In this document: piece by piece, positions 1,926-52,250 of the stretch
Position numbering within the stretch: the stretch's first letter is position 1
How the letters are laid out: each line of letters starts with the position of its first letter
NCBI GenBank assembly: GCA_030648265.1
Contig: JAUSHX010000028.1
Coordinates: 249 to 64,248, forward strand
Direction: 5' to 3'
Source of the DNA: a bacterium
Lineage (GTDB): Bacteria > Patescibacteriota > Minisyncoccia > Phycocordibacterales > UBA2100
Length of the DNA: 64,000 nucleotides
Made by a program: the position numbers and the translations under genes
The notes under the pieces: model-generated
Told to the model about the DNA's origin: nothing
The model's database searches: none
What the model saw: only the letters and a program-made list of their open reading frames with translations

Positions 1926-1952
1926 AATGAAAGCAGTCTGACTGCCTTCATT
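1926..1952. repeat. AGCAGTCTGACTGC palindrome copy (terminator-like hairpin after the NYN gene)
   Basis: AATGAAAGCAGTC-T-GACTGCCTTCATT. The same core occurs at 13088-13126 and 47110-47131. Confidence 0.7.
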
Positions 1953-2048
1953 TCCGGTGTGAGATTGAGGATTGAGTTATCCCACAAGTTGTCTGACAGG
2001 AAGAGGAAGGGGGCTATTCTTGGCGCATATTCGTAATCAATTTATCCT

Positions 2049-7813: not shown

Positions 7814-8218
7814 ATGTCAGATAACAGCGAAAAACTAAGCATTCTACTGGTAGACGATGACAAGTTCCTCGTGGATATGTACAGCATGAAATTCACGGCT
7901 AAGGGCTACAATGTGAATGCATGCTTGTCGGCCGCGGATGCGCTTCAAGTGCTTCGCGACGGCTTTCTGCCGCAGGCAATAGTTTTTGATTTGGTTATGC
8001 CGGAGCACGACGGATTTTACTTTTTAAAAGCTCTCATTACCGAAAATCTAAAGCGCGGCGCATCGCTCATAGCGTTAACGAACGAGAGCAATGATGATAC
8101 AAAAGCAAAGATTACCGAACTTGGAGCGGACAGGGTCATTGTCAAGGCGACCATGATTCCGTCGGAAGTTGTGGGCACCGTGGAGGAGGAGATTGTCAAG
8201 AAGAAAAAGGAGCGCTAG
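7814..8218 (+). CDS. single-domain response regulator (REC, CheY/PilH-like)
   Basis: ILLVDDDKF ... FDLVMPEHDG receiver motifs. Confidence 0.75.
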   Translation: MSDNSEKLSILLVDDDKFLVDMYSMKFTAKGYNVNACLSAADALQVLRDGFLPQAIVFDLVMPEHDGFYFLKALITENLKRGASLIALTNESNDDTKAKITELGADRVIVKATMIPSEVVGTVEEEIVKKKKER

Positions 8219-8374
8219 CGACTATTTTCGCTTGACCCAGCACCTTTGGCTGGGTGTTGAAAAGTAAGCGTGTATGGGAATGCATAGGGTATACTTATAA
8301 ACGATATGTCGTATGTTGAACAAAAGGTGCTGGGCATAAGAATTTCTAACTCGCTCCGCTCATAACAAATTCTT
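8201..8374 (+). repeat. triple-hairpin intergenic element copy B
   Basis: The left arm overlaps the stop codon. Central IR ACCCAGCACCTTT (8235-8247) pairs with AAAGGTGCTGGG (8323-8334). The right arm, with AGAATTT/AAATTCT stem, ends at the pilT ATG. Confidence 0.8.
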
Positions 8375-9436
8375 ATGGACTATAGCGCCCAACTAAAAAA
8401 GTACATCAACGTGTTAGTGCACGAAGGCGCCTCGGACGCTCATTTCTCCGTCGGCGTGCACCCGACTATCCGCGTTGCGGGGAATCTCTCTCCCATGCTC
8501 AAAGAGCCGGTGTTGACAAAGGAAGACACTCTCGGTTTCTTGACTGCACTCACCACGCCACTGAATCAAAAGCGGTTTTTTTCAGAGCAGGAAATTGATT
8601 TTGCATACGAAACAGAGGACAAAGTCCGTTTTCGCGGGAATGCATTTTACCAGCGCGGCTCGGTGAGCATTGCACTCCGCCTAATCCCCCGAAAAATCAG
8701 CACTATCGCTGAATTGAACCTGCCGGAGATTCTTACGACTTTCGCCCGAAAGTCGCAAGGATTTTTTATCGTTGTCGGACCAGTTGGCCAAGGGAAAACG
8801 ACGACTCTGGCCTCTATGATAGAGCTCATCAACACCGAAAGAATGGAGCACATCGTCACCATTGAAGACCCGATAGAGTATGTTTTTGAGCCGAAGCTGT
8901 CGCTCGTGGAACAGCGCGAAGTACGCATAGACACGAAAGATTTTCCTTCCGCACTTGCCAGCGCGTTCCGCGAGGATATTGATGTGCTCATGGTTGGCGA
9001 GATGAGGGGGCCGGAGACCATGGCAGCCGCTGTCACAGCCGCCGAAACAGGGCACCTGGTTTTCTCTACGCTCCATACGAATGATGCCGCACAAACGATT
9101 GACCGCATTATTGATACATTTCCGGCTTCCCAGCAGGACCAGATACGGCTCCAGCTCGCGTCCTCCATGGCCGGTATTTTTTCGCAACGTCTAATCCCGC
9201 GCATTTCCGGGGGTCTTATTCCTGCGTTTGAACTTCTCATCAACAACAAAGCGGTATCAAACCTGATCCGCGAGAAGCGCACGCATGAATTAAATACGGT
9301 GATAGAGACCAACTCCGAAGAGGGAATGATTGATATGAACCGCTCGCTTGCGGAATTGGTGGCGCGCGGCGAAATCACGGTTGAGAGCGCATACCAGTAT
9401 TCTCTCAATCCGAATATGCTCCAAAAATTGTTATGA
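8375..9436 (+). CDS. pilT: twitching-motility retraction ATPase PilT
   Basis: 353 aa, Walker A GPVGQGKTTT, PilT-type C-terminus. Confidence 0.9.
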   Translation: MDYSAQLKKYINVLVHEGASDAHFSVGVHPTIRVAGNLSPMLKEPVLTKEDTLGFLTALTTPLNQKRFFSEQEIDFAYETEDKVRFRGNAFYQRGSVSIALRLIPRKISTIAELNLPEILTTFARKSQGFFIVVGPVGQGKTTTLASMIELINTERMEHIVTIEDPIEYVFEPKLSLVEQREVRIDTKDFPSALASAFREDIDVLMVGEMRGPETMAAAVTAAETGHLVFSTLHTNDAAQTIDRIIDTFPASQQDQIRLQLASSMAGIFSQRLIPRISGGLIPAFELLINNKAVSNLIREKRTHELNTVIETNSEEGMIDMNRSLAELVARGEITVESAYQYSLNPNMLQKLL

Positions 9437-9627: not shown

Positions 9628-10839
9628 ATGTCCGTCTTCACCTACACAGCAATGGATGCCGAGGGAAACGAAAGAGCCGGCACCATTGATGCGGTAAACC
9701 TGGATCTTGCCATTATTGCGATACAGCGGCGCGGGCTCGTCATATCCAACATTGAAAGCGCCGATAAACCAGCGTCTAAATTCGGGGGGCGCATTGCATT
9801 TTTTGACCGCGTAAAGAACAGCGATATTGTTATTCTTTCCCGCCAGATTACGACTCTTTTTGAAGCGCAAGTTTCAGCGCTCCGCGCTTTTCAGCTTTTG
9901 GCGTCTGAAGCGCGCACGCCAAAGCTTGCGGAGAAATTAAGCGCTATCGCAAGCGACATACAGAGCGGCAGTACGATATCCACCGCGCTCTCGCATCACC
10001 CGGATGTGTTCACGCCGTTTTACGTGAACATGGTGCGGGCGGGCGAAGAATCGGGGAAACTGGATGAGACGTTTTCCTTTCTTGCCGATTACATGGACAG
10101 AAATTATGAAATCACCCAAAAGGCGAAGAACGCGCTTATCTATCCGGCGTTCGTAATGTCCACATTTATTATCGTGATGATGCTCATGATGACTCTCGTA
10201 GTCCCGAACTTGGCAAGCATGCTTGCCGATGTCGGGCAGAGCGTCCCGATCTACACCAAGGTTGTCATCGCCATGAGTTCATTTGTGTCCAGATACATCC
10301 TGCTTATCATTATTTTGCTCGTTTTTCTGGTTGTATTTTTGGTGCGTTACTCGCAGACCGAGGCCGGGGAGAGGGCGTTATCAAAAGCGCGGATGCAGAT
10401 TCCCTACATCGGGTCCGTGTATCAGAAACTTTTTCTTTCGCGCCTTGCCGACAACCTCTCCACGATGCTCCGTAGCGGTATCCAGATTTTGCGCGGCATT
10501 GAAATAACCGGAACGGTGGTGGGCGACCACGTCTATGAAGATATTCTCAAAGCAGTTTCGTCCGATGTGAAAGGCGGCATGCCGGTTTCGGAAGCATTCA
10601 GGCGGCATCCGGAAATTCCGGGAATCGTCGTCGCAATGATAAAAATCGGCGAGGAGACGGGAAACATGGGAAGCATTCTTGATACAATGGCGAAGTTTTA
10701 CAGACGGGAGGTGAACAGCTCAATTGATACACTCGTCAGTTTGATAGAGCCGTTTATGATAGTCATGCTTGCGGTCGGCGTTGGCGTGCTCCTGTCCGCG
10801 GTTCTTATTCCTATATACAATATAGCTTCTAGCTTCTAA
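9628..10839 (+). CDS. pilC: type IV pilus platform protein PilC (GspF family)
   Basis: 403 aa with two T2SSF repeats and three TM regions. Confidence 0.9.
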   Translation: MSVFTYTAMDAEGNERAGTIDAVNLDLAIIAIQRRGLVISNIESADKPASKFGGRIAFFDRVKNSDIVILSRQITTLFEAQVSALRAFQLLASEARTPKLAEKLSAIASDIQSGSTISTALSHHPDVFTPFYVNMVRAGEESGKLDETFSFLADYMDRNYEITQKAKNALIYPAFVMSTFIIVMMLMMTLVVPNLASMLADVGQSVPIYTKVVIAMSSFVSRYILLIIILLVFLVVFLVRYSQTEAGERALSKARMQIPYIGSVYQKLFLSRLADNLSTMLRSGIQILRGIEITGTVVGDHVYEDILKAVSSDVKGGMPVSEAFRRHPEIPGIVVAMIKIGEETGNMGSILDTMAKFYRREVNSSIDTLVSLIEPFMIVMLAVGVGVLLSAVLIPIYNIASSF

Positions 10840-12676: not shown

Positions 12677-13501
12677 ATGCTTGCTGTAATGTACGGTTTG
12701 TTCGGTCTTATAATCGGCAGTTTCGTAAATGTTGTTGTATTGCGCTCCGGAGTGCTTTCACTTTCCGGCAAAAGCGGATGTATGTCGTGCGGCGCAAAAA
12801 TCAAATGGTATGACCTTATTCCGGTTCTTTCTTGGCTTGCACTCCGCGGAAGATGCCGCGCGTGCGGAAGCCGCATTTCCGTGCAATATCCAGCGGTGGA
12901 ACTTGGAACGGGGGTTTCTTTCGCGCTTATCGGCGGGGCCTCTTTGCCGCCTCTCGCGACACTCCTCGGGTTGCTTATATGCTCGGTTCTTATCGCAATT
13001 GCAGTCTATGACCTCCGGCATACCATTATTCCGGATGCGTGGGTGTGGAGCTTCAATGCACTAGCTCTTATCTCTATCTTTCTTCCTGAAAGCAGTCTGA
13101 CTGCCTTTAGCAGTCAGACTGCTTTCGATACCATCGCAGGTCCCATTGTCGCCGCTCCGCTTTTCGTTCTATGGCTCGTGTCACGCGGAAAATGGATTGG
13201 ATTGGGTGATTCCAAACTCGCTCTGGGGATCGGCTGGCTTCTAGGTTCGCTTGCAGGCATTAAAGCGGTACTCTTGGCTTTCATTCTCGGAGCGATAATC
13301 GGGCTTGCGCTGATTTTCTTTTCATCTGCCTTGTGGAATAGGATTGTGAAGCAATTTATCCAGCACCACTCATGGCACATGAGTGGTGCTGGGATTACAA
13401 TGAAGAGTGAAATTCCATTCGGACCGTTTTTAATCGCGGCTTGTCTGTTCGTATGGATATCACAGATATATCACATCCCGATTCCTTTTTTATGGCAGTA
13501 A
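12677..13501 (+). CDS. pilD: prepilin peptidase / N-methyltransferase PilD (A24 family)
   Basis: N-terminal CxxC..CxxC domain (CMSCGAKI ... CRACGSRI). Catalytic Asp motifs AVYDL and GLGDSKL. Confidence 0.85.
   Translation: MLAVMYGLFGLIIGSFVNVVVLRSGVLSLSGKSGCMSCGAKIKWYDLIPVLSWLALRGRCRACGSRISVQYPAVELGTGVSFALIGGASLPPLATLLGLLICSVLIAIAVYDLRHTIIPDAWVWSFNALALISIFLPESSLTAFSSQTAFDTIAGPIVAAPLFVLWLVSRGKWIGLGDSKLALGIGWLLGSLAGIKAVLLAFILGAIIGLALIFFSSALWNRIVKQFIQHHSWHMSGAGITMKSEIPFGPFLIAACLFVWISQIYHIPIPFLWQ
13088..13126. repeat. 39-nt perfect inverted repeat inside the pilD CDS, in frame
   Basis: GAAAGCAGTCTGACTGC-CTTTA-GCAGTCAGACTGCTTTC encodes ESSLTAFSSQTAF in a loop between TM segments. Confidence 0.85.
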
Positions 13502-14343
13502 CCCCTTACCACTTTTCCTATGTCTACATTCTGAACAGTATGCGGTTTCCACGACGAATATATATTGGTTTTACAAACAATCTTAGAAAACGCTTCGGTC
13601 AACACAACGACGGGGAAGTAATCTCGACAAAGCAATATGCACCATGGGAATTACTTTATTATGAAGCGTTTTCTAAGGAGCGATTCGCGCGCCAACGTGA
13701 GTTGCATCTCAAGAATAATGGCAACCCTATGCGCGAGTTGAAAAAACGTATCGGCTTTGATTCCGTTAGGAAAAGTGGTAAGGGGGGCTTCACCCTCATG
13801 GAGCTTATTGTTGTCACTGGTATCATTGTTGTCATCACATCCGTTGTCCTTGCAAACAATAACAGATACGGCGGGTCGGTTCTTCTGCAAAACCTGGCGT
13901 ATGACATCGCACTTTCAATACGGCAGGCGCAAGTATACGGAATATCGGTGCGCGGTCTCGGTGCGAGCAATTTCAGCATTGGATACGGAATGCATTTTGC
14001 AATGAACGACTCTACGCACTATGAGCTTTTTTCGGATGCGGACAACAACGGATTATTCAGTGATGCTTCCGAAAATGTCTCTCCATCGCCGTATGTAATC
14101 GGTCGCAATTATTACATCGCGAAGCTTTGCGCGCCCGCCGGCACAAAATTATCTGACAATTCCTATGAATGTACTTCCGTCACCCAGCTTGATGTGCTGT
14201 ACAAACGCCCCGAACCGGATGCAGCCATTCGCATTCCCGGGACATCATCCTTGCAGGACAGCGCACGCATTATAGTTGAATCCCCGCGCGGGGATATTTT
14301 GAGCATCGTCGTTGATGCAACAGGGCAGATATCGGTACAGTAG
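13492..14343 (+). CDS. continuous ORF: GIY-YIG nuclease domain fused in frame to a minor (pseudo)pilin
   Basis: MAVTPYHFSYVYILNS..RIYIGFTNNLRKRFGQH..LLYYEAF (GIY, YIG, R and E all present) runs without a stop into RKSGKGG-FTLMELIVV. An internal ATG at 13729 would give an ordinary 20-aa prepilin leader. The ATG at 13492 overlaps the pilD stop. Confidence 0.7.
   Translation: MAVTPYHFSYVYILNSMRFPRRIYIGFTNNLRKRFGQHNDGEVISTKQYAPWELLYYEAFSKERFARQRELHLKNNGNPMRELKKRIGFDSVRKSGKGGFTLMELIVVTGIIVVITSVVLANNNRYGGSVLLQNLAYDIALSIRQAQVYGISVRGLGASNFSIGYGMHFAMNDSTHYELFSDADNNGLFSDASENVSPSPYVIGRNYYIAKLCAPAGTKLSDNSYECTSVTQLDVLYKRPEPDAAIRIPGTSSLQDSARIIVESPRGDILSIVVDATGQISVQ
13501..13787 (+). mobile_element. hairpin-bounded GIY-YIG module (full-length copy F)
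   Basis: IR ACCCCTTACCACTTTT (13501-13516) pairs with AAAAGTGGTAAGGGG (13771-13787) around the GIY-YIG coding region. The IR core is the same as in copy D. Confidence 0.6.
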
Positions 14344-15665: not shown

Positions 15666-16240
15666 ATGAAAAAGTTTACAGTTTACAGTTTACAGTTTAC
15701 GGAATGGACGCGGCGAGTATTCCGCTGTCAACTGTCAACTGTCAACTGTCAACCGCGCGAGCGCGGTTTTACCCTTCTCCTTGCCGCGCTTGTTTCTTCC
15801 GTCGTCCTTGCCCTTGGCGTTTCAATATTTGAAATTGCTCTAAAACAAGTTAGTCTTTCGTCCATGGGGCGCGAATCGCAGTTCGCTTTTTATGCCGCCG
15901 ACACCGGCGCAGAATGCGCTCTCTATTGGGATGTTCGATGGAATTATTTTGCTACGACGACGCCGTCAAGCGTTGTGCCGCCGCAACCGAAATGCGCCAC
16001 GCAATCACTCAATGCGCTCGGACGCCCGACATCCCCCACGGACCCGTATACGATGACTTTCCAGTTTGACCCGAGCAACAAGTGCGCGCAAGTCAGTATT
16101 AAGAAATGCGCTGCCGTTGGTCTCTGCGATCCGGAGAACCCGCAAATTCATACGGTCATTCATGCCGACGGCTTCAATACATCCTGTGCGACTATAAGCA
16201 CGAGCGCACGTGCGCTTCAGCGTTCTGTGGAAATACAATA

Positions 16241-16244
<4 letters not shown>
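15666..16244 (+). CDS. minor (pseudo)pilin with heptamer-repeat-encoded leader
   Basis: ...CQPRERG-FTLLLAALVSSVVLAL. There is no in-frame ATG, GTG or TTG between the repeat and GFTLL. Confidence 0.65.
15674..15753 (+). repeat. heptamer-array inverted repeat (GTTTACA)n / (CTGTCAA)n
   Basis: Left arm 15674-15702 and right arm 15722-15753. Each 7-nt register has 6 complementary positions and 1 mismatch. Confidence 0.8.
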
Positions 16245-18700
<2,456 letters not shown>

Positions 18701-20979: not shown

Positions 20980-21104
20980 TCTGCCTTGAGATTTTATCGC
21001 GTCGTTTTTCCCGCGCATAGCCACGTGACAAAATGACGCCAACGCAAGCGCTACTTTGTTTTTACGTGGTTGCGAGAGTTGGAAATTTGCAGTATATTCA
21101 CGCG

Positions 21105-21179
21105 AGCGGGGTGGAGCAGTAGTAGCTCGCAAGGCTCATAACCTTGAGGTCGCAGGTGCAATTCCTGTCCCCGCAACCA
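21105..21179 (+). tRNA. initiator tRNA-Met (CAT), CCA encoded
   Basis: AGCGGGGTGGAGCAG...GGCTCATAACC...CCCCGCAACCA. There is a 1:72 mismatch and three G-C pairs in the anticodon stem, as in bacterial tRNA-fMet. Confidence 0.85.
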
Positions 21180-21188
21180 CGTAAAACG

Positions 21189-21213
21189 AAAACCCCGCCA
21201 TTGGCGGGGTTTT
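21189..21213 (+). terminator. rho-independent terminator after tRNA-fMet
   Basis: AAAACCCCGCC-ATTG-GCGGGGTTTT. Confidence 0.7.
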
Positions 21214-21327
21214 CGTCACGTGGCTTGCGCCAGCAGGACATGTGTGAGCGAAGCGATTTACGTGGTTGAGCCGCGTGGTGAACGGAGTGAGCTTTACGCG
21301 GCAACTTATTCACGTAAGAATGTGTAC

Positions 21328-21591
21328 ATGTACCATGTTTACCTTTTAGAAAACCAAGACGACAAAAGTTGGTATATCGGCTACAGCGCCAATCTCAAAC
21401 AACGAATCGAGCGGCATCAAAAGGGTGATGGCGCTCGCACAACAAGTAGAAAGGAAAACTGGGATTTGATTTACTATGAAGCCTACAAAAACGAACAAGA
21501 TGCAAAAGGACGCGAGCGCTTCCTTAAAAGCGGGTCTGGCAGAAAGTTCCTAAAAAAACAGCTCGCACACTATTTGGTTAGTGAATTGTGA
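21328..21591 (+). CDS. stand-alone GIY-YIG nuclease (YhbQ/UPF0213-like)
   Basis: MYHVYLLEN..SWYIGYSANLKQRIERH..LIYYEAY..RERFLKSGSG. Confidence 0.75.
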   Translation: MYHVYLLENQDDKSWYIGYSANLKQRIERHQKGDGARTTSRKENWDLIYYEAYKNEQDAKGRERFLKSGSGRKFLKKQLAHYLVSEL

Positions 21592-21843
21592 CGCCATTTC
21601 CTGCCCCTGCAACACGGTTGTGACGCCAGGGAACCACATTCCCACAGGCGTCGAAAGTGCAAGAAGTCGGTACGGTACCGACTCCCATGGTCGGCTATAA
21701 AAGCGCATGAAACCACGCGAGTGGTTTTTGCGCATGCAATGTTCTCAACGTATTTTTGGTGCAATTCCAATTCTCGTGCAAATCAGTGATGTGTGTTGAA
21801 ATCGTGAAAATAGGCGTATTTCCTAAGTAATTCACGATTATGC

Positions 21844-21871
21844 TTGACTAAATCGTGAAAATCAATATACT
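21844..21871 (+). promoter_or_regulatory. sigma70-like promoter of fic with repeated AAATCGTGAAAAT boxes
   Basis: TTGACT-16 nt-TATACT. The box lies in the spacer (21850-21862), again at 21799-21811, and inverted at 21829-21840. Confidence 0.45.
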
Positions 21872-21898
21872 TTAGCGGACACAGAGAACAAATCGTAT

Positions 21899-22771
21899 AT
21901 GACAAAGACTCCTCAAACACTCAGCCAGATTAAATTGCTCCGCGAGCGCTACTATAAGGCGCTGCCGGGCAAAGAGTTGCTCATCAAGATTATCAATGAG
22001 TCGGAAATTCCCGAGCACGTTTATAATTCAAACGCTATAGAAAATAGCACGCTCACCCTAGAGGAGACCGAAAAAATTCTCCTCCAGATTGATCTTGGCC
22101 GATATGTAAACGAGCGGGAAATTTTTGAAGCGAGGAATCTCGCGCGCGTTGTTGAATATATAGAAACGAAAGCAAAAGAAGCCGAGCTCTCTTTGTCCGG
22201 CATATGCCTGCTTCATAAAATGCTTATTGCCAATATCCGCGACGATGTCGCCGGCAGGTTCCGTCAGACTGGCGAGTGGGTGCGCGTCGGCGCACACATG
22301 GGAGCAGACCCGAAAGACATTGAGCATCTTCTGACAAAAATGCTCACGACATACCACGCAAGCTCGCACGAGCATATTGTGAAGCGCATTGCCTGTCTTC
22401 ATCTCGCCATTGAACACATTCATCCATTTGTTGACGGCAACGGGCGAATCGGCCGCGTCATTAACAACTATGCACTCATTAGGGAGGGGTACGTGCCGAT
22501 TAATATCGCGTTCGTGAATCGCGCCCGCTATTATGATGCGTTCAAAGAGTCTGATGCGAGCGGCGCAACCTCGATTATGGAAGAGGTCGTTGGCCGTGCG
22601 CTTGCCACGAGCTACCACAAGCGCTTGGCATATCTTGAAGGCAAACACATCATCACTCTTGCCGAGTATGGCAAACAAAAAAAACTTTCTCACTCAAATC
22701 TCATTAACAAAGCTCACCGCCAGACCATCCCTGCCTTTCTTGAGAAAGGTGTATGGAAAATCGGAGTGTAG
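21899..22771 (+). CDS. Fic/DOC family protein
   Basis: Fic motif HPFVDGNGRIGR. Confidence 0.85.
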   Translation: MTKTPQTLSQIKLLRERYYKALPGKELLIKIINESEIPEHVYNSNAIENSTLTLEETEKILLQIDLGRYVNEREIFEARNLARVVEYIETKAKEAELSLSGICLLHKMLIANIRDDVAGRFRQTGEWVRVGAHMGADPKDIEHLLTKMLTTYHASSHEHIVKRIACLHLAIEHIHPFVDGNGRIGRVINNYALIREGYVPINIAFVNRARYYDAFKESDASGATSIMEEVVGRALATSYHKRLAYLEGKHIITLAEYGKQKKLSHSNLINKAHRQTIPAFLEKGVWKIGV

Positions 22772-23014
22772 TATTCGTGTAGTAAATACCCTCATAAACC
22801 CTTGCGTTCATCATATAAGCTTGTAGTTAGCTGTTAATCTACAAGCACAAGGAATGACGCAACCCCCGCTGTGAGCCCCGAGGCGAGCAGAGCGAGCTTT
22901 TCGGGGTGAGTCCAGACCTGTTCCGACGCCCCTAGTTGATAAGAAAATCCTTTAAAATAGAGCACGTAATATCGGCAGTATCAAAAAATTAAGATTTGTG
23001 GGATGATTTGATTG

Positions 23015-23677
23015 ATGAAGATTAAAGCACTTCCTGCGCACGAGAGGCCGCGAGAAAAACTCATGGAGAAAGGTGCGGAGAATCTGACCGATGTTGAGTT
23101 ACTCGCAATTCTTTTGCGCACTGGTCGCGCAGGAAAGAGCGCGCTTGATATTGCGGAAAGTATTCTCACAAAGTACTCAAAGAAAAGAATATTAGATATT
23201 ACGTTAGCCGACCTTAGAGCGATCAAAGGCATTGATGCGGGCAAGGCATGCACCTTGCTTGCGGCATTTGAGTTCACAAAACGTGCGACGGGCGCGCATA
23301 AAAATGGAAGGCCAATTATACAAAGCACTGAAGACGCACTGGCACAACTGCATGATGTTCGCTCGCATAAAAAAGAGCATTTCGTTGCGCTTTACTTAAA
23401 TGCTCGCAACGAGCTTGTGCATCGCGAAGATATTTCAGTTGGAACAGTAAACGCAAGCATCGTACATCCGCGCGATGTATTTGCCCCTGCGCTTGAGCAT
23501 AATGCTACGGTCGTCATAGTCGCTCACAATCACCCCTCCGGCAGTCCTGACCCATCGCCAGAAGATTACGATGTTACTGCTCGCCTTAAAGACGCGGGGA
23601 AGCTTATCGGGGTCCAGCTTCTCTACCACCTTATCCTCACCAAAGACGGTCATGCGACGATTCATCAGAACCCGTAA
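23015..23677 (+). CDS. radC: RadC-like JAB/MPN domain protein
   Basis: HNHPSGSPDPSPED JAMM motif and an N-terminal HhH region. Confidence 0.8.
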   Translation: MKIKALPAHERPREKLMEKGAENLTDVELLAILLRTGRAGKSALDIAESILTKYSKKRILDITLADLRAIKGIDAGKACTLLAAFEFTKRATGAHKNGRPIIQSTEDALAQLHDVRSHKKEHFVALYLNARNELVHREDISVGTVNASIVHPRDVFAPALEHNATVVIVAHNHPSGSPDPSPEDYDVTARLKDAGKLIGVQLLYHLILTKDGHATIHQNP

Positions 23678-23880
23678 TGCTAACTTTGTTTAGTTTCACT
23701 CCTCGAATGTGAAAAAACTAGGCTAGTTTGTTTAATGAGAAGCCCGCAATTATCACCCACTCAATTACTTAAGAATTGGTTAAATATCACTTAAGTTTAA
23801 GTAATCTGCATATTTGGGCTAGGAATTTCCACATGCAGTATTGACAAGTATTTCACATATGATACACTATTGTCATAGTT

Positions 23881-24501
23881 ATGAAAAGCGCTAAGAATCT
23901 ACTCGAGCAGCTCAAATCCTTGCCTTATTTCACCAAGGAGTCTGTTTTGCAGCTTAGCAGACCGTACGGCCTTGCAAAAACAACGGTTGACACATACATC
24001 AGCCGCTCCATGAAGCGCAAAGACATCCTTTCGCTAAGGAGGGGGCTATATGTATCTGCCGACTTTTACAACAAGAACAAGAGTGACACCTCGTATCTTT
24101 TCTTCCTTGCAAATGTTATCCGCAAGCCTTCCTATGTAAGTTCGTGGGCGGCGTTGCAGTACTATGGTCTTGCGACGGAAGCAATCCACACCATTACGTC
24201 CGTTACTTCCAAGGTGACGCGTACATACGTTACAAAGGCAGGCAACTTTGTCTACTCGTCGATAAAGGACGAACTATTTTCTGATTCAGTCTTGATAAAA
24301 GGAAAGTTCGACTTCTTTATCGCCACTCCGGCAAAGGCTTTGTTTGACCTGTTGTATGCTAAGACTCGTCAGTTTCAGGGAGTTGCGTTCGAGCATATTC
24401 CAAGACTCGTCGAAGAGCTACGCATCGATATTGATGAAATGGACAAATCAGAAAGAGAGAAATTTTATATGATGGTAAAGAAATATACGCACCATGGATA
24501 A
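23881..24501 (+). CDS. AbiEi-like antitoxin / transcriptional regulator
   Basis: wHTH-type N-terminus, SYVSSWAALQYYGL motif, 8-nt overlap with the downstream NTase gene. Confidence 0.5.
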   Translation: MKSAKNLLEQLKSLPYFTKESVLQLSRPYGLAKTTVDTYISRSMKRKDILSLRRGLYVSADFYNKNKSDTSYLFFLANVIRKPSYVSSWAALQYYGLATEAIHTITSVTSKVTRTYVTKAGNFVYSSIKDELFSDSVLIKGKFDFFIATPAKALFDLLYAKTRQFQGVAFEHIPRLVEELRIDIDEMDKSEREKFYMMVKKYTHHG

Positions 24502-25780
24502 TCAGATTCTCAGCGTGCTTAAGCAGAGACTCCAGGAAGTTGTCGCGTTGGGCGTTGCCGATGCCGAAACACAGCGCAATGCACTGAAAGAGGAGCTTCA
24601 GTACTATGTACTCGATTTTATCTATCACCACCAGGAATACAAAAGATGGGTGATGTACGGCGGTTCCGCGTTGCGTATTTGTCACGGCTTGGACCGAATG
24701 TCTGTCGACCTTGACTTCGAGGTTGAACATCCCATTACTGATGCATTTCTCACAGACCTACAGAATGAAATCGGAGAGCATTTTTCAAGCGCTTACAATG
24801 TTGGTTCGGAATCGTTGACGGTAAAAACCAATCATGGCCGTGGACTAACGCTCCGCTTTATCATCGGCGACGAACTGGGGTTTGGCCACACATCCAATCA
24901 GGTACATGTGAAGATAGACCTCAATAATTTCATGGCCCCCAAGACGGTTATCGAGCGCCGGCCAATCAACCACAACCAGCTTTCATTCGTTATCGTGACC
25001 TACAATATGTCAGCGCTCATGGCGAGCAAGATTGCCGCCATATTCTTGTGCGGTCGGCGGGGTATCGGAGAAGCGGTGTATGAAGAGAAAGGCAGAGACA
25101 TCTACGATTTACTCTGGTACATGGGCAAGAAGACTGTGCCTGACCTTGATTATCTGAACGCAAAGAAAGTTGAAGAAGCTAAAGACATCCGCACGCTTTT
25201 CACTAAGCTCACGATACAGATGAACAAAGTGAACAATGAAAATCTGAAGCAGGATCTCACGCCGCTTTTCACCAACCAGGGATTCATCACTCACTGGCTT
25301 GAAAACTGGCGCGAGAGTTTTTTCCACTTCATGGATGCTTATAAGATTCGTACCGTAACAAAGCTTGAAGGTGTGCGGGTGTTTGAGGATTTCAACTCCG
25401 ACGTATTTTCATTTGTGTACGCATACTCCACGGCAGAGGGAGATTCGGTGCGGGTTGCGTACCTCATCAGTGACTACTGGATGGACTTCAAGGACGGCGA
25501 TATCCCGACGGTCATAGATAACTTTGTAGACGAGCATATCGAATTTGCCGCAAATGGCGTATCAAGTCGACCCGCATCACAGAAAAAGCTCAAACAGTAC
25601 GCAACTATGTTTTATGCTAAAACCGAAGCGTATTTCAAAAAGACCGGACGCATCATGATAGGCGATACTATCGCGACAAAGCTCATCCGCATGACTGCCG
25701 ATAAACTGAACCAGAAAGAGCAGATTGTGCTCAACAAATCCGCCTTGTTGTCATGCGAGCTTGACGACCTGCTAAGATAG
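24494..25780 (+). CDS. AbiEii/AbiGii-family nucleotidyltransferase toxin with long C-terminal extension
   Basis: GGSALRICHGLDRMSVDLDFEV NTase motif. At 428 aa it is longer than the size I recall as typical for this family. Confidence 0.6.
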   Translation: MDNQILSVLKQRLQEVVALGVADAETQRNALKEELQYYVLDFIYHHQEYKRWVMYGGSALRICHGLDRMSVDLDFEVEHPITDAFLTDLQNEIGEHFSSAYNVGSESLTVKTNHGRGLTLRFIIGDELGFGHTSNQVHVKIDLNNFMAPKTVIERRPINHNQLSFVIVTYNMSALMASKIAAIFLCGRRGIGEAVYEEKGRDIYDLLWYMGKKTVPDLDYLNAKKVEEAKDIRTLFTKLTIQMNKVNNENLKQDLTPLFTNQGFITHWLENWRESFFHFMDAYKIRTVTKLEGVRVFEDFNSDVFSFVYAYSTAEGDSVRVAYLISDYWMDFKDGDIPTVIDNFVDEHIEFAANGVSSRPASQKKLKQYATMFYAKTEAYFKKTGRIMIGDTIATKLIRMTADKLNQKEQIVLNKSALLSCELDDLLR

Positions 25781-25785
25781 AAGGT

Positions 25786-25887
25786 ATGCGCTACACACTT
25801 TTTGAACAACTGAAGAAGGTCTTGGAAAAGGACGAGCGATTGGTGGCCGAGGGGGAATTAAATCGAGCGACATTCTCACATTCTTGA
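25786..25887 (+). pseudogene. 33-codon ORF stub truncated by the first palindrome
   Basis: MRYTLFEQLKKVLEKDERLVAEGELNR.. then a stop inside hairpin 1. The resemblance to N-termini of some RM-type proteins comes from memory only. Confidence 0.25.
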
Positions 25888-26006
25888 GAATGTGAGAATG
25901 TCGTGGGAGGGGGAGAATCTATTCTAGTATTTTGCAAAATACTAGAATAGATTGGGAAGGGCGACGGGGCGGGTCATTTCAATGTTTTGCAAAACATTAG
26001 AATGAC
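25869..26006. repeat. array of three AT-rich palindromes separated by G-tracts
   Basis: Hairpin 1 at 25869-25902 (15-bp stem), hairpin 2 at 25916-25953 (perfect 38-nt palindrome), hairpin 3 at 25973-26006 (2 mismatches). The linkers include GGGAAGGGCGACGGGGCGGG. Confidence 0.85.
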
Positions 26007-26057
26007 GGGGGATAGAAAATAACGGGGGGGAGGGATAGGGAAAAAGGAACATTATTA

Positions 26058-26421
26058 CGCTTAATAATCGTTTGACACCTGTTTCTGTGCCTGTTGCCCG
26101 ACTACGCTGGAGCTCCGCTGGACCGTCTACAGGTGCCTATCATGACCGATAGGCCTGCGATTTGTATCCACGCTACGCGCGGACAAATCGGGAGCCTGAC
26201 ACCTGGTGTTTGTTTACGTCGAAACGGTACCGTCTACAGGCGAATTAACAAATTCGTGGCTCGGCCATAAACTTTGCTGACCGATAGACTCCATTTCGAC
26301 GCGATCTTTACTGGCGACGTAGAGCGAGTGTGATGCGGAAGCGCAGCTTCCGCATCACCGAGCCGAGGAGTCAGAAACCGTCAGCCGGTTTTCGCTTAAT
26401 AATCGCCTACCACCTGCTTCT
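26058..26421 (+). repeat. non-coding segment bounded by 29-nt imperfect direct repeats with internal repeated boxes
   Basis: CGCTTAATAATCG..ACCTG.TTCT occurs at 26058-26086 and 26393-26421. Inside, TGACACCTG, CCGTCTACAGG and TGACCGATAG each occur twice. Confidence 0.6.
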
Positions 26422-26478
26422 TTTGAGGAGTACAATGAGCCCTAACGTTTTTGAGTACTGAATTTATAAACGCAGAAT

Positions 26479-27072
26479 ATGAATCAAATTGTCTACATCT
26501 TAATAAATGAGTCTATGCCTGAATTTGTGAAGATAGGCTTTACTCATGGTGATGTAAACGAAAGAATCAGGCAGTTAGATCGGACAGGCGTACCTCTTCC
26601 GTTTGAAGTTTACTACGCTGCAACAGTGGAAGACGCAGAAAAAGAAGAAAAATGGTTGCATTCTATTTTTGCTGATCGTCGGGCACGGGATAGCCGAGAA
26701 TTTTTCAAGATGAATCCTGAATATGCGGCGCTTGCATTAAAACGAGTAGAAATTAGAGAAACTAAGATTTATAGCGTACTGACCCCAGAACAGGAAAAGG
26801 AAGTCGATCAAGTAAAAGAAAGACGCTCAAGATTTCATTTCGCACAGTACGGAATTCCAGTCGGATCTAAACTTACTTTTACGAGAGATTCGGATATTGT
26901 TGCCGAAGTAGTAGAAAACGACAAAATAAAGATTGGAGACAAGGTTGATTTTCTATCAAATGTGGCCCGTGATTTATTGGGATACAGGCGAAGACCTCAA
27001 GGCACTTTGTATTTTGAATTTGAGGGCGAGATCTTAGATGATAGACGCAGAAGAATGGAGGAAGAAGATTAG
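26479..27072 (+). CDS. T5orf172 / GIY-YIG-like domain protein
   Basis: VYILINESMPEFVKIGFT...ERIRQL...PLPFEVYY...EKWLHSIF...REFF pattern. Confidence 0.65.
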   Translation: MNQIVYILINESMPEFVKIGFTHGDVNERIRQLDRTGVPLPFEVYYAATVEDAEKEEKWLHSIFADRRARDSREFFKMNPEYAALALKRVEIRETKIYSVLTPEQEKEVDQVKERRSRFHFAQYGIPVGSKLTFTRDSDIVAEVVENDKIKIGDKVDFLSNVARDLLGYRRRPQGTLYFEFEGEILDDRRRRMEEED

Positions 27073-27173
27073 ACAGGAGGCGGCGGCGCGGCAGGTTTCC
27101 CGGAAATGAGGATTTGTGGGATGATGTTCTGGCGATGGTAAACAATGGACTGGATGTTGCAACAAGGATTCAG

Positions 27174-28055
27174 TTATCTGTAATAATTCAGTAGGACTTC
27201 GAGGGTCAGGTCTACGCCTCTTGTGCGGAGTTCTTTAATTACTTTTCCAGTGTAAAGCTTTTTAAGCATTTCACTTTTTGACGCATCTTCCGCATTGTGT
27301 ATTTTTCTGTGACAATTTGGACATAAAGGCACAATGTTTACTGGAACATCAATACTGTGCGGGAAGTCTTCCTGATTAGAGATGGGTATTATATGATGCA
27401 TTTCAACGTATTGCCCCTCGAGTGTGGGGCTAAAAAAGGTCTTGTGCGATGGATCATAAGTACAGAGGTTGCCAGATAAAATAAGTGCGAGTTTAGCTAT
27501 CCTTGGGTTGCCCCGATACCCAGTAGATGAATTTTTTGTCTGTTTTCTAGGCTTTGCGATTGGTCCCTCCGGCAATGGTTCAATCGGATCCGCGATGCGC
27601 ACTGCAGTCTGGAACATCTCATCAGTTGTGTCTATGACGGACTCCCCCCTTTCTATTGCGGAGATGATTCGCTGAGCCTCCTCAATGGTGACTGTGTCTG
27701 ACGCTGCAAGACCGGAGAGGTCTTTCAGCCTGTATTCGTGACCAGTGCCGTTAGGAGATTCGAATACACGATGTGCCAATCTGCCATCCCCCTGGTTAAG
27801 CTCACTCCGATATTGCGCTGTCCAGTTACTGCCGTGATGAAACTCGTGCCTCCAAAGTTCTGAAAAGGGGTTGGATCTGAAATTCTCGATAGGTAAGTAT
27901 TTCCCAGGTTTTGCGATGGACAATGCCGAAAGAATTATTGCAAATGAGAGGCGGGTGCTATCTTTATATTGGAAAACCTCGGCTAACTCACTGGCGGTCA
28001 TTTCAGAAATCATAGCTGTATAGTTATACACATCCGAAAATAAGTAAAGCACCAA
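27174..28055 (-). CDS. HNH endonuclease (candidate restriction nuclease)
   Basis: C-terminal YVEMHHIIPIS...NIVPLCPNCHRKIHN. Divergently transcribed from the methyltransferase fusion. Confidence 0.7.
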   Translation of the reverse strand: MVLYLFSDVYNYTAMISEMTASELAEVFQYKDSTRLSFAIILSALSIAKPGKYLPIENFRSNPFSELWRHEFHHGSNWTAQYRSELNQGDGRLAHRVFESPNGTGHEYRLKDLSGLAASDTVTIEEAQRIISAIERGESVIDTTDEMFQTAVRIADPIEPLPEGPIAKPRKQTKNSSTGYRGNPRIAKLALILSGNLCTYDPSHKTFFSPTLEGQYVEMHHIIPISNQEDFPHSIDVPVNIVPLCPNCHRKIHNAEDASKSEMLKKLYTGKVIKELRTRGVDLTLEVLLNYYR

Positions 28056-28130
28056 TCTTAGTGCATAATATGCATGTTACTGCTCGTATTGGTTGATTAA
28101 TTTACCACCTACACTCAATTGGTCGAATTC

Positions 28131-31031: not shown

Positions 31032-31078
31032 TATGGGGAATAGGGTGTCAGGTGCCATTTTTGCGTTAGAATTGGAAC

Positions 31079-31405
31079 ATGCCCGACGAAACCCAGGCCC
31101 CTGCGACCGAGCCAGAAACACTGAATGAGCCAGTGGCTAGTAGCCAGCAGCCCGTAGCAATACCAGAAACAGACGTATCAAGTCCTGCGGGCGATATTTC
31201 AAGCACCGAAACCCCGCCTGCGCCCCAAAACGGCCCTGGGGACATCGCGACCCCGGTTCCTGTTAAAGATGCAAATTCGGAGCCGAATTTGGCTGAGAGC
31301 AGTGGCGAAAATACGGAAAAACAGCCTGAAATCGGAGCCGCGGGAGCGGCCGCTACTGCGGTTGCTCCCGCGGCTTCATCCCCCTCGTTTATCGGCGATT
31401 TTTGA
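31079..31405 (+). CDS. low-complexity Pro/Ala/Glu-rich ORF (doubtful)
   Basis: 108 aa with no fold-like segment. Its stop overlaps the TTG of the next ORF. Confidence 0.25.
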   Translation: MPDETQAPATEPETLNEPVASSQQPVAIPETDVSSPAGDISSTETPPAPQNGPGDIATPVPVKDANSEPNLAESSGENTEKQPEIGAAGAAATAVAPAASSPSFIGDF

Positions 31406-32310
31406 AAGATAACGGTCTCGCTGTTGGCCAACCAGGAAGATTTGAATTAACAAAAGCGGGCGTGTTGTTGTTTGGTAAAAATCCTTCCATTGCACTTAAA
31501 AATAAGTGTGGAATTAAAATCTCTCATTATTATGGAACAAAACCGAGCCATACCGGAAAACCAAATTTCGTTACTCGTCCGTTTACGGTTGAAGGGCCTT
31601 TGTTGAAGCAGATTGAGCAGGCAATTGAGTACTTCAGGAATATTGTAAAGAATTCGCCACCAAAACTTAGCGGTGCGTCTTTTAACCCTACTTTTTTGGT
31701 TCCGGAATGGGCATTCCAAGAAGCCATAACAAATGCGGTTATCCACAGAAACTATTTTGTCCAAGACGATATACAAGTCAGGTTTTTTGACGATCGCGTT
31801 GAAATCGAAAGCCCCGGAACATATCCAGGCCATATTACTGTTGAAAATATCAGGACCGAACGGTTTGCGAGAAATCCGCTGATTTTGCGAACTCTCAATC
31901 GTTTTCAAATTGCCCCTAACTTGGATATTGGCGAGGGCGTAGATCGCATGTTTAAAGTTATGAAAGAGCAAAACCTGTATGAACCACTTTTCTTTCCGCC
32001 CACGATACGTCCCAATTCTGTTTTATTGTTTTTGCTTAATATTCAGAAAGTTGAGTATTGGGACACTGTCGGTAAGTATTTAGATAAAAATTATCGCATC
32101 TCTAACAAAAGAGCGCGCGAGATAACCAGTGTGCAAGATATTTTGAAAATGTCTCGACTGTTACATAATTGGGTTGAAAAAGGATTATTGGAGAAAATGG
32201 GCAAAGCCAAGAAGGACTGCTATTACCGTAAACCAGGACAGGAAATCCCCAAGGGTTTATTTTCAATGGGGGGTGATAATAAAACCGGCAAAGGGAATTT
32301 ACACCCTTAA
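31402..32310 (+). pseudogene. 5'-truncated AlbA_2/HATPase_c_4-type putative DNA-binding protein
   Basis: It begins near the end of the AlbA_2 domain (LTKAGVLLFGKNP), then QEAITNAVIHRNY ... IESPGTYPG ... RNPLI ... IGEGVDRMF. It opens with TTG and lacks the N-terminal ~100 aa. Confidence 0.5.
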
Positions 32311-32364
32311 AATAGGCATATTTTGGTAGGCCTTATTCTCACAGACACATTAAAGGAAGAAATT

Positions 32365-34158: not shown

Positions 34159-34173
34159 ATTGCAGGTACTGTC

Positions 34174-34305
34174 ATGGACGAGGAACTCTTCGAACTCGCA
34201 AAAGATAACGACCTAACGCTTGATGAGGCCCAGGAGGTTCAGGATTTGGCTGATGAGACGGGTCTGGATCTCAACGAAGCATTGGAAATTTGGCAGGCAC
34301 AATAA
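34174..34305 (+). CDS. 43-aa highly acidic small ORF
   Basis: MDEELFELAKDNDLTLDEAQEVQDLADETGLDLNEALEIWQAQ. It is absent from the ORF track because it is shorter than 60 aa. Confidence 0.3.
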   Translation: MDEELFELAKDNDLTLDEAQEVQDLADETGLDLNEALEIWQAQ

Positions 34306-34672
34306 TAGCAGCCCTGAAACCAGCTGTTGGTAACTCGCTTCGCAACTCGCTAATACTAAGCTAGGGTGCTCAACGATAGCCAAAAGTGCTATCATGTTCT
34401 GTACACCACCAATATCGGCTCGAAAGAGCGTCGACCTAAACTATTCGCAAGAGTGGCATGGTCGAGAAGACCCAATCACGATACTGAACCCGCCTGTTTG
34501 GGCTGTCCCCACTTCTTGCGAATTTCATCTTGACCATGTATACTGCTACGCATAAACACCTTGTCGTAGCTTCGGTTACGGTAAGTCAACGAAAGGGGGC
34601 TTAGGCCCCCTTTTGTTATGTATGGTATTCTTGAATCCATGGTATTCTGAACTTCAGATTCACACTTTCTAT

Positions 34673-35173
34673 ATGGCAACGAAAATAAACCAAGCAAAGT
34701 ATCGCAACGCCATCCTGTTTTTTGCGAGTAGGATTCAAAATGGCACGCTCGGCAAGTTGAAGCTAATGAAGCTTCTCTACTATTTCGATTTCGATTTCTT
34801 CGAGAAATATGGGCGCTCGGTTACAGGTGATAAATACCTACGTTTCGAGAATGGTCCCGTGCCACGTATGGCAGAGAAGATTATAAAGCAGATGGATGGC
34901 AAAGAAATCAAGATTTCGAGGCGAAAGGTAGCTGATGGCTATAAAGACCAGATGCATATAGAAGCTCTTGTGGCCTTTGATATTAGTGTTTTCGAAAAAG
35001 AAGAAATCCTTCTTCTCGAGGAACTTGCGTCCAAATGGGAACGCTTTAGCGGTGCCGAAATGAAAAGTGCGACTCATGGTGAAGCACCATGGATTGCCAC
35101 CGAAGCGAATGGCGTCATCGATTACAATCTCGCCTATTATCGAGACACATACGGCGAAATGGCAAAGGTCTAG
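34673..35173 (+). CDS. DUF4065 (Panacea/SocA-like) antitoxin-type protein
   Basis: LGKLKLMKLLYYFDFDFFEKYGRSVTGDKYLRFENGPVP pattern. Confidence 0.65.
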   Translation: MATKINQAKYRNAILFFASRIQNGTLGKLKLMKLLYYFDFDFFEKYGRSVTGDKYLRFENGPVPRMAEKIIKQMDGKEIKISRRKVADGYKDQMHIEALVAFDISVFEKEEILLLEELASKWERFSGAEMKSATHGEAPWIATEANGVIDYNLAYYRDTYGEMAKV

Positions 35174-35184
35174 CGGAGAACCTC

Positions 35185-37787: not shown

Positions 37788-37901
37788 TAAAGAAGTTGTT
37801 ATGAGCGAAGCGAATTACAAATTCTTTACCCAGCACCTTTCGCGAAAGGTGCTGGGTGTAAGATTTACTAAACTCATTATCATTCGTTAAGAAAATCTAA
37901 C
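37785..37901 (+). repeat. triple-hairpin intergenic element copy J
   Basis: Left arm ..ATGAGCGAAGCGAATTACAAATTCTTT. Central perfect 30-nt palindrome ACCCAGCACCTTTCGCGAAAGGTGCTGGGT (37828-37857). The right arm ends at the ilvC ATG. Confidence 0.85.
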
Positions 37902-47104: not shown

Positions 47105-47109
47105 TAAAT

Positions 47110-47131
47110 TCTAGCAGTCTGACTGCTAAGA
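47110..47131. repeat. AGCAGTCTGACTGC palindrome copy
   Basis: TCTAGCAGTC-T-GACTGCTAAGA. Confidence 0.7.
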
Positions 47132-47164
47132 TTCCATTGTATCAAACCTTAGAAAGAAAAGGGA

Positions 47165-47567: not shown

Positions 47568-47573
47568 ACATAC

Positions 47574-52237: not shown

Positions 52238-52250
52238 GGGGGAACGGTTC

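Follow-up and report, generated by a model that had tools for sequence, protein, structure and literature searches.

Why should the gene of a membrane protease carry, in frame, a perfect inverted repeat of 39 nucleotides (nt)? The question arises in a 64,000-nt stretch from a bacterium of the Patescibacteriota (Minisyncoccia; Phycocordibacterales; UBA2100), namely positions 249 to 64,248 of contig JAUSHX010000028.1 in assembly GCA_030648265.1, to which we refer throughout as the window. The gene is pilD, which encodes a prepilin peptidase, and to all appearance the palindrome is repeat DNA that is tolerated there and does no work in the enzyme. Judging from sequence comparison, we think it on balance probable that the repeat is a hairpin akin to the repetitive extragenic palindromic (REP) elements and their inverted doublets (REP doublets forming hairpins, REPINs), that an unconstrained loop of PilD tolerates it, and that it is kept up at the level of DNA or RNA and spread by short-patch recombination.

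The palindrome reads GAAAGCAGTCTGACTGC-CTTTA-GCAGTCAGACTGCTTTC, that is 17+5+17 nt, and its 17-nt arms are 100% complementary. It lies in phase 0 of the open reading frame (ORF) 12677-13501 and is translated as ESSLTAFSSQTAF, residues 138-150 of PilD, just as an earlier, sequence-only reading of the window had it. Each arm contains an inner palindrome, and the 39-mer is thus two 13-nt palindromes at 18-nt spacing; since the second unit is the exact reverse complement of the first, the whole is an inverted doublet of the REPIN type, which folds into one longer hairpin. It is the sole doublet that we saw. In orthologs (related loci carry our labels beginning with L) the doublet takes an 18+3+18-nt form, GAAGGCAGTCTGACTGCT-TTT-AGCAGTCAGACTGCCTTC, and one ortholog lineage (L084, L085, L094) has a 21-nt singlet, GAAGGCAGTC-T-GACTGCCTTC. 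Singlet and doublet differ by exactly one 18-nt step, which points to interconversion by slippage between the internal direct repeats with the frame kept. The 21-nt unit and the 18-nt period are both divisible by three, and the frame in use has no stop. With units of 21-27 nt, stems of 10-13 bp and doublet stems of 17-18 bp, the hairpins are of REP size. Where the pilD doublet of other lineages has G4/C36 the window has A4/T36, a compensatory pair under which the long stem stays perfect. Folding energies of the 39-mer are -32.1 kcal/mol (z = -9.3) for RNA and -21.1 kcal/mol (z = -10) for DNA, whereas the RNA fold of the singlet allele is far weaker (-15 kcal/mol). An artefact of assembly or amplification is ruled out, since at least 11 pilD contigs, from independent assemblies of JGI, ENA and NCBI, carry the 39-mer or the 21-nt singlet.

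The host gene is identified as pilD by matches to PF06750 (Peptidase A24 N-terminal, 1.5e-28) and PF01478 (Peptidase_A24, 4.7e-10). The source of the window is a Kaiserbacteria-like bacterium. The closest named PilD, from Candidatus Kaiserbacteria RIFCSPHIGHO2_02_FULL_49_16, is 65% identical, and no solved structure was found for PilD by sequence match. In the ortholog alignment the palindrome peptide is flanked by the invariant pairs Y111-D112 and G177-D178. An AlphaFold2 model (34 sequences; mean predicted local distance difference test score, pLDDT, 79) has a low-confidence coil at residues 135-147, between helices 120-134 and 148-169, and its transmembrane (TM) helices reach a pLDDT of about 90. 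The palindrome does sit where the sequence-only reading had placed it, in the loop between the TM segment that follows the first catalytic Asp and the one that precedes GLGDSKL. This TM4-TM5 loop is without positive charge and both catalytic-Asp loops are positively charged; from this pattern, the positive-inside rule and the published topology of PilD and TcpJ, we infer that it faces outward. The loop is hypervariable among 33 orthologs, with a small set of peptide motifs recurring patchily, and accepts almost any sequence, in keeping with its earlier description as tolerant.

That the palindrome had inserted into this loop, however, was not borne out. No ortholog of this clade has an empty site, and alignment gave no 13-residue insertion: each loop is filled by repeat-derived sequence of similar length, mostly 7-nt tandem arrays. 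The fillers include five copies of CCATACT (L087, L096), four of ACCCTAT (L095), four of GCTACCA (L010), CTACTAA/CTACTTA (L097, L175) and degenerate arrays (L001, L092). The type of cassette is discordant with a loop-masked tree, and P0005 (palindrome) and P0013 (heptamer) are nearly identical outside the cassette. Over 5 kb, L091 and L087 (~99.9% identical) differ in 6 columns of single nucleotide polymorphisms (SNPs) and one 78-nt patch, and the pilD genes of this palindrome/heptamer pair differ by one SNP only outside a patch of about 80 nt. In the one clean allele pair, L091/L086 versus L087/L096, the difference is the 78-nt patch, which takes in about 13 codons of the following helix besides the cassette. 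Because the helix codons were exchanged too, we regard the patch as a short-patch recombination tract and not an insertion. The hairpin here replaces an array and is not embedded in one. As RNA the heptamer allele of pilD is wholly unstructured (0 kcal/mol), since heptamer units in general are G-poor (16%) on the pilD strand. The locus thus offers a clean natural allele swap, between strains ~99.9% identical over 5 kb that are one 78-nt patch apart. Several pairs of pilD genes prove to be mosaics when compared in 30-nt windows; between L081 and L089, for instance, identity is 96-100% in all of these but those of nt 510-720. Silent donor cassettes for gene conversion were considered and rejected: the 64-kb window holds no second copy of the pilD patch, and only the core recurs.

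Within the variable loop, it is the DNA of the palindrome that is constant. L083 and L081 are 67% identical in pilD DNA, and their longest shared run is exactly the 39-mer, the next being 17 nt. Such concentration of identity in the 39-mer implies that the palindrome is constrained at the DNA level or, in one of these lineages at least, of recent origin. Moreover, the peptide (E/G)SLTAF(SSQTAF) is encoded by the palindrome in every ortholog readable as DNA; the peptide without the DNA palindrome, which the sequence-only reading had named as the observation that would tell against it, was not encountered.

The core of the hairpin belongs to a dispersed family, whose full-length pattern is 27 nt, AAT-NNN-R-GCAGTC-W-GACTGC-Y-NNN-ATT, and whose core can be searched as RGCAGTCWGACTGCY. 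With at most one mismatch, the 14-mer AGCAGTCTGACTGC gives 6 matches at three loci of the window (1932, 13091/13109-13110 and 47113/47114), against an expectation of 0.02, and none of 100 shuffles gives 6. GCAGTC-N-GACTGC, in 4 copies, is the most recurrent 6-N-6 palindrome of the window; all others, and all shuffles, reach 2 at most. The earlier claim that the core recurs twice elsewhere holds for both places (exact cores at 1933-1945 and 47114-47126), though only these 13 nt are exact in both. The first of these copies begins 32 nt past the stop of the NYN gene (ORF end 1894), as had been noted, and is upstream of a promoter-like CTGACA-16-TATTCT. It has 21 nt in common with unit 1 of pilD, including a window-specific asymmetric A(-1)/C(+1), which argues for common descent or for gene conversion within the genome. 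The second lies in non-coding DNA between a terminator hairpin (47017-47047) and rnpB (47571-47935).

In all, 6 extragenic copies were found in four diverged Kaiserbacteria-like groundwater lineages (Table 1), and the suspicion that the palindrome is part of a dispersed element finds support. Most appear to be between genes, just past stop codons: four of those at window 1926, L171:5583, L083:16572, L083:18184 and L175:20720 start 18-73 nt from the adjacent stop, and the ones at L083:16581 and L175:20720 lie between convergent 3' ends. Across the 2.3 Mb of loci examined, the exact core is confined to this clade. L171 belongs to the L092/L001 lineage (99.8% identical); as the L171/L092 and L175 lineages carry heptamer-type pilD loops and no pilD palindrome, the family would be older and wider than its pilD copy. 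The window and L171 copies occupy the same place, upstream of the first pilus-cluster gene, in intergenic DNA that is unalignable except for a promoter-like TTGACA-16-TAT(T/C)CT. The alignment of the six copies yields a 13-bp helix with 92% of cells paired, and none of 500 shuffles attains its score. No copy departs from the others in the apical 6 bp or in the outer AAT/ATT, whereas four pairs of the lower stem have changed on both sides (covariation), and the palindromic flanks differ among copies, being GAAG/CTTC or TTCTG/CAGAA. Short heptamers adjoin two of the extragenic hairpins: GATTGAG in 2.3 copies (window 1961-1976) stands 9 nt past the copy at 1926-1952 and is absent in L171, and a CCTATAA-like heptamer in four copies (L083 ~18245-18285) stands about 50 nt past L083:18184, beside a CTTGGAGGT hairpin.

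Table 1. Positions of the pilD palindrome, of hairpins with the same core and of other features discussed; positions without a locus label are those of the window.
Feature	Position	Strand	Remarks
pilD, prepilin peptidase family A24, host gene	12677..13501	+	palindrome in TM4-TM5 loop between D112 and D178
39-nt perfect palindrome	13088..13126	+	inverted doublet of 18-nt hairpin unit, REPIN-like; translated in frame
Core 1, GCAGTC-T-GACTGC	13092..13104	.	from motif scans of the window
Core 2, GCAGTC-A-GACTGC	13110..13122	.	reverse complement of unit 1; centre 18 nt from core 1
Extragenic copy, subfamily A	1926..1952	.	AATGAAAGCAGTC-T-GACTGCCTTCATT; 27-nt palindrome, one A.C mismatch
Extragenic copy, subfamily B, degenerate	47107..47133	.	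AATTCTAGCAGTC-T-GACTGCTAAGATT; weaker palindrome
Extragenic copy	L083:16572-16602		AATTCTGGCAGTCAGACTGCCAGAATT; perfect subfamily B; core at 16581
Extragenic copy	L083:18184		TGTGGCAGTCAGACTGCCAGGA
Extragenic copy	L171:5583-5609		AATGAAGGCAGTCAGACTGCCTTCATT; core at 5590
Extragenic copy	L175:20720		perfect subfamily B
Second in-frame perfect palindrome of pilD	13360..13392	+	15+3+15 nt; QHHSWHMSGAG, residues 228-239
RAYT-like Y1 genes with matching flanking hairpins	L175:15826-16518; L021:900-1484; L044:1587-2000; L121:9156-9779; L054:8650-9318		
Leader arrays (about 4.3 copies, about 30 nt)	15671-15755; L091, L087, L092, L081, L095, L097, L003, L002		
Intergenic element copies	8215-8375; 16236-16364; 37795-37905		each immediately 5' of a gene (pilT, ligA, gene at 37903)
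miaA	62711-63613	minus	two in-frame perfect palindromes, 63062-63084 and 63338-63371

Several ready identities for these hairpins were tried and rejected. Phage origin was rejected, as neither the doublet pattern nor the GAA..TTC singlet pattern had a match in 2.9 million viral contigs. A known RNA family was dismissed: at the gathering threshold Rfam gave nothing at any copy, and in the window only rnpB and six tRNAs. The GCAGTC hairpins are not canonical intrinsic terminators, lacking the A-tract and T-tract of the genome's clear terminators, which in the window consist of A-tract, GC stem and T-tract (e.g. 21186-21216 and 47017-47047). They do not fit a miniature inverted-repeat transposable element, the whole element being one hairpin with no flanking direct repeats in pilD or at the extragenic copies. 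As to a restriction-modification site, the window has methyltransferase and type IIG genes, sites of this kind are normally avoided and not enriched, and the evidence points neither way. A literature search did not find the 13-mer core.

The closest known counterparts are REP and REPIN families, which, with their REP-associated tyrosine transposases (RAYTs; Y1, IS200-like), are short dispersed palindromes occurring as singlets and inverted doublets (PMC3116915). Like them, the hairpins described here are dispersed palindromes of 20-40 nt, appear from the few extragenic copies to lie mostly just 3' of genes, are conserved across related species and occur as singlets and as an inverted doublet, the pilD 39-mer, that folds as one longer hairpin. 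Moreover, RAYT-like genes of related bacteria of the Candidate Phyla Radiation (CPR) are flanked by hairpins of the same build: Y1_Tnp-like genes in L175, L021, L044 and L121 stand between perfect hairpins with 1-3-nt centres, matching the architecture of the pilD hairpin. Some even contain their own hairpin in frame, twice in L175 (each translated as QLGGETSKL) and once in L044. The L175 gene matches PF01797 at 7e-7 and NCBIfam REP_Tyr_transpos at 1e-3, which is below the cut-off. The likeness is not complete. The pilD doublet is only 39 nt and REPINs are generally longer; the pilD copy is translated in frame within a conserved gene, whereas REPs are extragenic by name; and the unit, perfectly palindromic around a 1-nt centre, has no 5' head tetranucleotide of the GTAG type, its conserved parts being the apical GCAGTC-W-GACTGC and the outer AAT/ATT. 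A GTAG head is not universal among REP families. Copy density is low, and no cognate RAYT was found for the GCAGTC family. To our knowledge, REP-type hairpins have hardly been described in the CPR.

Other small repeats resemble the hairpin in part. Elhai et al. (2008, Genome Res 18:1484) reportedly described cyanobacterial "nano-elements" of 21-27 nt, the small dispersed repeats (SDRs), along with heptameric short tandemly repeated repetitive (STRR) sequences, the SDRs being mainly intergenic. The present hairpins are likewise 21-27 nt long and show compensatory changes; they too are dispersed and may be mobile, although no enzyme is known for them. SDRs are reportedly often embedded in heptanucleotide repeats, and in the present case pilD orthologs have either the hairpin or a heptamer array, with heptamers also beside two extragenic copies. 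Phylum and sequence are different, however, and our hairpin replaces an array instead of sitting inside it. Sites of the parS, matS or Noc-binding site (NBS) type are compatible in their 6-1-6 architecture and copy number, but the stem covariation speaks against them. Rickettsia palindromic elements, described by Ogata (2000, 2002; outlined in PMC10969869; see also PMC1779305), are about 100-150 bp long and place peptides of 30-50 residues in frame in housekeeping genes. On those accounts they share with the pilD palindrome an in-frame position in a conserved gene, at a fold-neutral surface site, and copies in non-coding DNA; our unit of 21 nt (7 residues) and doublet of 39 nt are about a fifth of their size, and where they are portrayed as insertions relative to orthologs, the pilD site is always occupied by repeats whose alleles are exchanged by recombination. 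Finally, mitochondrial genes of Nematomorpha contain perfect in-frame inverted repeats of up to 284 bp with both arms translated (PMC6649704). Unlike the pilD palindrome these are organellar, affect many genes per genome and form no dispersed family with a constant core. We therefore assign the hairpin to no named family, as no cognate RAYT was found for it and it lacks a GTAG head (REP), and as it differs in size and in the manner of occupation from the Rickettsia elements.

Under the reading that we favour, the 39-mer would be an inverted doublet drawn from a small, clade-wide family of REP-like hairpins. The TM4-TM5 loop of this clade would be free of amino-acid constraint and always taken up by DNA-level repeats, whether hairpin or 7-nt arrays; the ribosome would read passively through the hairpin, and the peptide would be functionally neutral. 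The constancy of the palindrome would then be set by an agent acting on DNA or RNA and not on protein, most likely a Y1 (RAYT-type) transposase that recognises this specific sequence and whose gene would lie in another part of the genome. Template switching at the hairpin, by which one arm is corrected on the other, may keep the arms perfect, slippage by 18 nt may change the size, and homologous recombination may carry the repeat among co-occurring strains.

A number of observations weigh against this reading. The density of about 5 extragenic copies per about 177 kb of motif-bearing genomes is below that of classical REP families, and a further 20.5 kb of the L083 genome (L174) contains no copy of the core. 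No extragenic copy was seen to be polymorphic for presence and absence with clean boundaries, and no target-site duplication is visible. Only one extragenic copy can be compared, between the window and L171, and its position is conserved, as would be expected just as well of a functional site. The copies have nothing beyond the 13-nt core in common, and so short a motif could also serve to bind a protein. Of the eight loci with the core, five belong to the type IV pilus cluster or adjoin it, an enrichment that may be a sampling effect, the DNA examined being mostly from around pilD. With regard to the putative enzyme, tblastn and a partial Pfam annotation revealed no Y1 or RAYT gene within the 64-kb window, none of the Y1 genes found in the loci examined is flanked by GCAGTC hairpins, and the RAYT-like gene of L175 is flanked by a different hairpin family, CTTGGAGGT..ACCTCCAAG.

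The palindrome is not the only one in the coding DNA of the window. A second stands in pilD itself, in a low-confidence loop of the PilD model that is probably cytoplasmic, and folds as RNA with -29 kcal/mol (z = -7.3). Its right arm (HMSGAG) is kept in orthologs, L089 retains a quasi-palindrome, and the left arm appears to have been overwritten by its complement, so that the site carries what reads as the signature of template-switch correction. Its outer 8-nt stem, CCAGCACC/GGTGCTGG, is also the stem of a dispersed intergenic element. That element is about 100 nt long and has three copies in the window; its stem is ACCCAGCACCTTT/AAAGGTGCTGGGT, and its loop varies from 0 to 76 nt. The two palindromes of miaA are single-copy; neither is an insertion relative to orthologs, length being constant, and they replace variable segments. 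For one of the two sites, the DNA ATATCGACCT-ACG-AGGTCGATAT was predicted from the ortholog peptide NIDLRGRY and found exactly in three orthologs (L168:10530, L169:756, L170:2662), among which it is identical despite synonymous differences in the flanks. Compared with the window's ATACCAAGGAC-G-GTCCTTGGTAT, it differs in sequence and is equal in length, centre and ends. Overall, the window has 17 coding palindromes with stems of at least 8 bp versus 5.3 +/- 2.2 in codon-shuffled genes, and 4 versus 0.38 with stems of at least 10 bp. We count this tendency of the genome among the arguments for the REP-like reading.

These palindromes raise the possibility that the pilD hairpin is a local mutational product. 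Quasi-palindrome template-switch mutagenesis, known from the work of Ripley and of the Lovett laboratory, makes imperfect inverted repeats perfect. Template switching would have perfected the repeat and slippage duplicated it, nothing would recognise the sequence, and the other copies would be coincidental or secondary. The mechanism accounts for changes in both arms and for the second pilD and the miaA palindromes, which arose with no change in length; the conserved right arm, overwritten left arm and L089 quasi-palindrome of the former look exactly so. In line with it are also the miaA site where orthologs have a different palindrome and the window's overall surplus of palindromes in coding DNA, and the A4/T36 to G4/C36 pair fits correction of one arm on the other. 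However, template switching is a mutational mechanism and no element family. It leaves unexplained the identical 13-27-nt sequence at unrelated loci of four diverged lineages, the 21 nt common to 1926-1952 and pilD, and the 39-mer as the longest shared run at 67% identity, since a self-correcting palindrome that nothing recognises should drift. As the whole explanation we consider it unlikely. We are somewhat more open, though still doubtful, toward the core being the duplex binding site of a dimeric protein, either a pilus operator or upstream activating site or a chromosome site of the parS, matS or Noc type, with the pilD doublet as two adjacent sites that happen to be translated. Binding sites of this sort are often intragenic. 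Every copy has the 6-1-6 palindrome exactly, in lineages with 62-67% identity in PilD, and the 39-mer is better conserved than the catalytic motifs. The bias of core-bearing loci toward the pilus cluster would follow, as would the conserved position of the copy beside TTGACA-16-TAT(T/C)CT amid unalignable DNA. Copy number, at a few tens per Mb, is like that of matS or NBS sites, and canonical parS, with up to 3 mismatches allowed, is absent from the window and from the L168 and L170 parB loci. Yet the flank covariation is expected of a hairpin and unneeded in a duplex site. The window and L171 are 14 nt apart in the spacing of palindrome and -35, and the palindrome is thus out of helical phase; several copies lie between convergent 3' ends with no promoter (L083:16581, L175:20720); near-identical strains manage without the pilD copy; and L168, 16 kb around parB of a related lineage, has none. 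In relatives parB (L168:7864-8853; L170:150-1109) is within about 1.2 kb of miaA with one short gene between, and the right end of the window may therefore be near the origin region.

Two further proposals we hold to be highly improbable. One is that the core is a DNA uptake or recombination signal, comparable with the DNA uptake sequence (DUS) or uptake signal sequence (USS), of a transformable CPR bacterium, the pilD patch having spread by biased uptake. The window has a full type IV pilus set, ComFC-like and RadC proteins, and a relative has DprA; pilD is a mosaic of short recombination patches; and the motif is exact, clade-specific, strongly over-represented and placed past genes as hairpins, as many DUS pairs of Neisseria are. 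But known uptake sequences occur about once per kb, and the core is found about once in 16-35 kb (4 times in 64 kb) and is missing from the 20.5 kb of L174, from most of the window and from most loci; the lower-stem covariation favours a hairpin over a duplex word, and a single recombination patch was examined. The other would give the hairpin a role in pilD mRNA, as a translation pause at membrane insertion, an RNase III site or an internal terminator that sets the ratio of pilD to minor pilins. Both pilD hairpins have very high stability (-32 kcal/mol with z = -9.3, and -29 kcal/mol with z = -7.3), both come after TM helices, and the compensatory change preserves the stem. The singlet allele, however, is much weaker at -15 kcal/mol, the same core also occurs outside genes, and there is no U-tract. 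Moreover, the alternative allele of strains ~99.9% identical over 5 kb is unstructured, and pilD can therefore do without the hairpin. If the palindrome is instead a tolerated REP-like repeat, very small repeat DNA can write short peptides into the proteins of reduced genomes, as a hairpin translated in a membrane protease and a RAYT-like gene with in-frame hairpins suggest. In annotation, such repeat-derived segments are not to be taken as conserved protein motifs.

Heptanucleotide arrays, of the kind that alternates with the hairpin, form a dense layer in the leader regions of pilins, which is previously unreported and is a more novel lead than the palindrome; a literature search found nothing on heptanucleotide repeats or pilus phase variation in Patescibacteria. 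Perfect heptamer arrays are the only common simple repeat of the pilus loci, 54 in 151 kb, with none of periods 4-6 or 8-12. Most are in the part of minor pilin genes that encodes the leader peptide, directly before the cleavage motif RGFTL[IV]E, for example 4.4 copies of CTACGAA encoding LRTTNYELRTN, and each leader array checked in assemblies is downstream of an in-frame start codon. By analogy, this architecture resembles that behind phase variation of the opa genes of Neisseria. Between L092 (7855-7891) and L093 (6141-6163), 99.8% identical over 15.5 kb with 13 SNPs, the sole indel is two GCCAGTA units, in an array just past the pilC stop that has 5.3 copies in L092 and 3.3 in L093, from which we take the heptamer arrays to be hypermutable. 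The window's homologous array at the pilC stop is TAGCTTC in 2.3 copies (10823-10838); arrays of 6.3 TAGCTTC units occur in L003 and L091, in the former upstream of pilD and in the latter elsewhere in the locus. Of the 80 distinct perfect heptamer arrays in all loci, 45% have units with TAC and 39% units with CTA, versus about 11% expected. A 7-nt spacing of CAGT/ACTG that would link palindrome and arrays was discarded, not being significant beyond the arrays themselves.

We tentatively raise, as a view we think improbable at present, that the pilD loop and the minor-pilin leaders make up a programmed hypervariable (contingency) type IV pilus system of the Kaiserbacteria clade. Slippage by one or two heptamer units would shift the frame and switch a gene on or off, as in Neisseria opa, and the REPIN-like palindrome would be an alternative allele that changes only in frame, in 18-nt steps. 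Alleles would be exchanged in populations by short-patch recombination of the transformation type, possibly stimulated by the hairpin. Host attachment, DNA uptake and phage adsorption are roles ascribed to CPR pili; if the heptamer repeats slip, CPR bacteria would have phase-variable pili.

Some further features of the window deserve mention. An inverted pair of heptamer arrays (xACAGTx in four copies, 31 nt, xACTGTx in four copies) occupies 52247-52338, between a stop codon and the start of lepA, and a degenerate array, CTACACG CTAAACG CTACTCG CTATACG, is translated within lepA as NYTLNATRYTLN (52546-52575). The gene after pilD (13540-14343; L175:10795-11655) encodes, in two lineages, a GIY-YIG nuclease fused in frame upstream of a prepilin motif, ..KSGKG|GFTLMELIVV; with such a fusion, cleavage by PilD would free the whole nuclease domain as a "leader". 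An island of defence and mobile genes at 21000-35200 holds GIY-YIG, Fic, RadC, AbiEii, T5orf172, HNH and SocA genes, a 970-aa fused N6/N4 and C5 DNA methyltransferase and an Eco57I-like type IIG enzyme, and within it several long perfect intergenic palindromes lie at 25868-26006.

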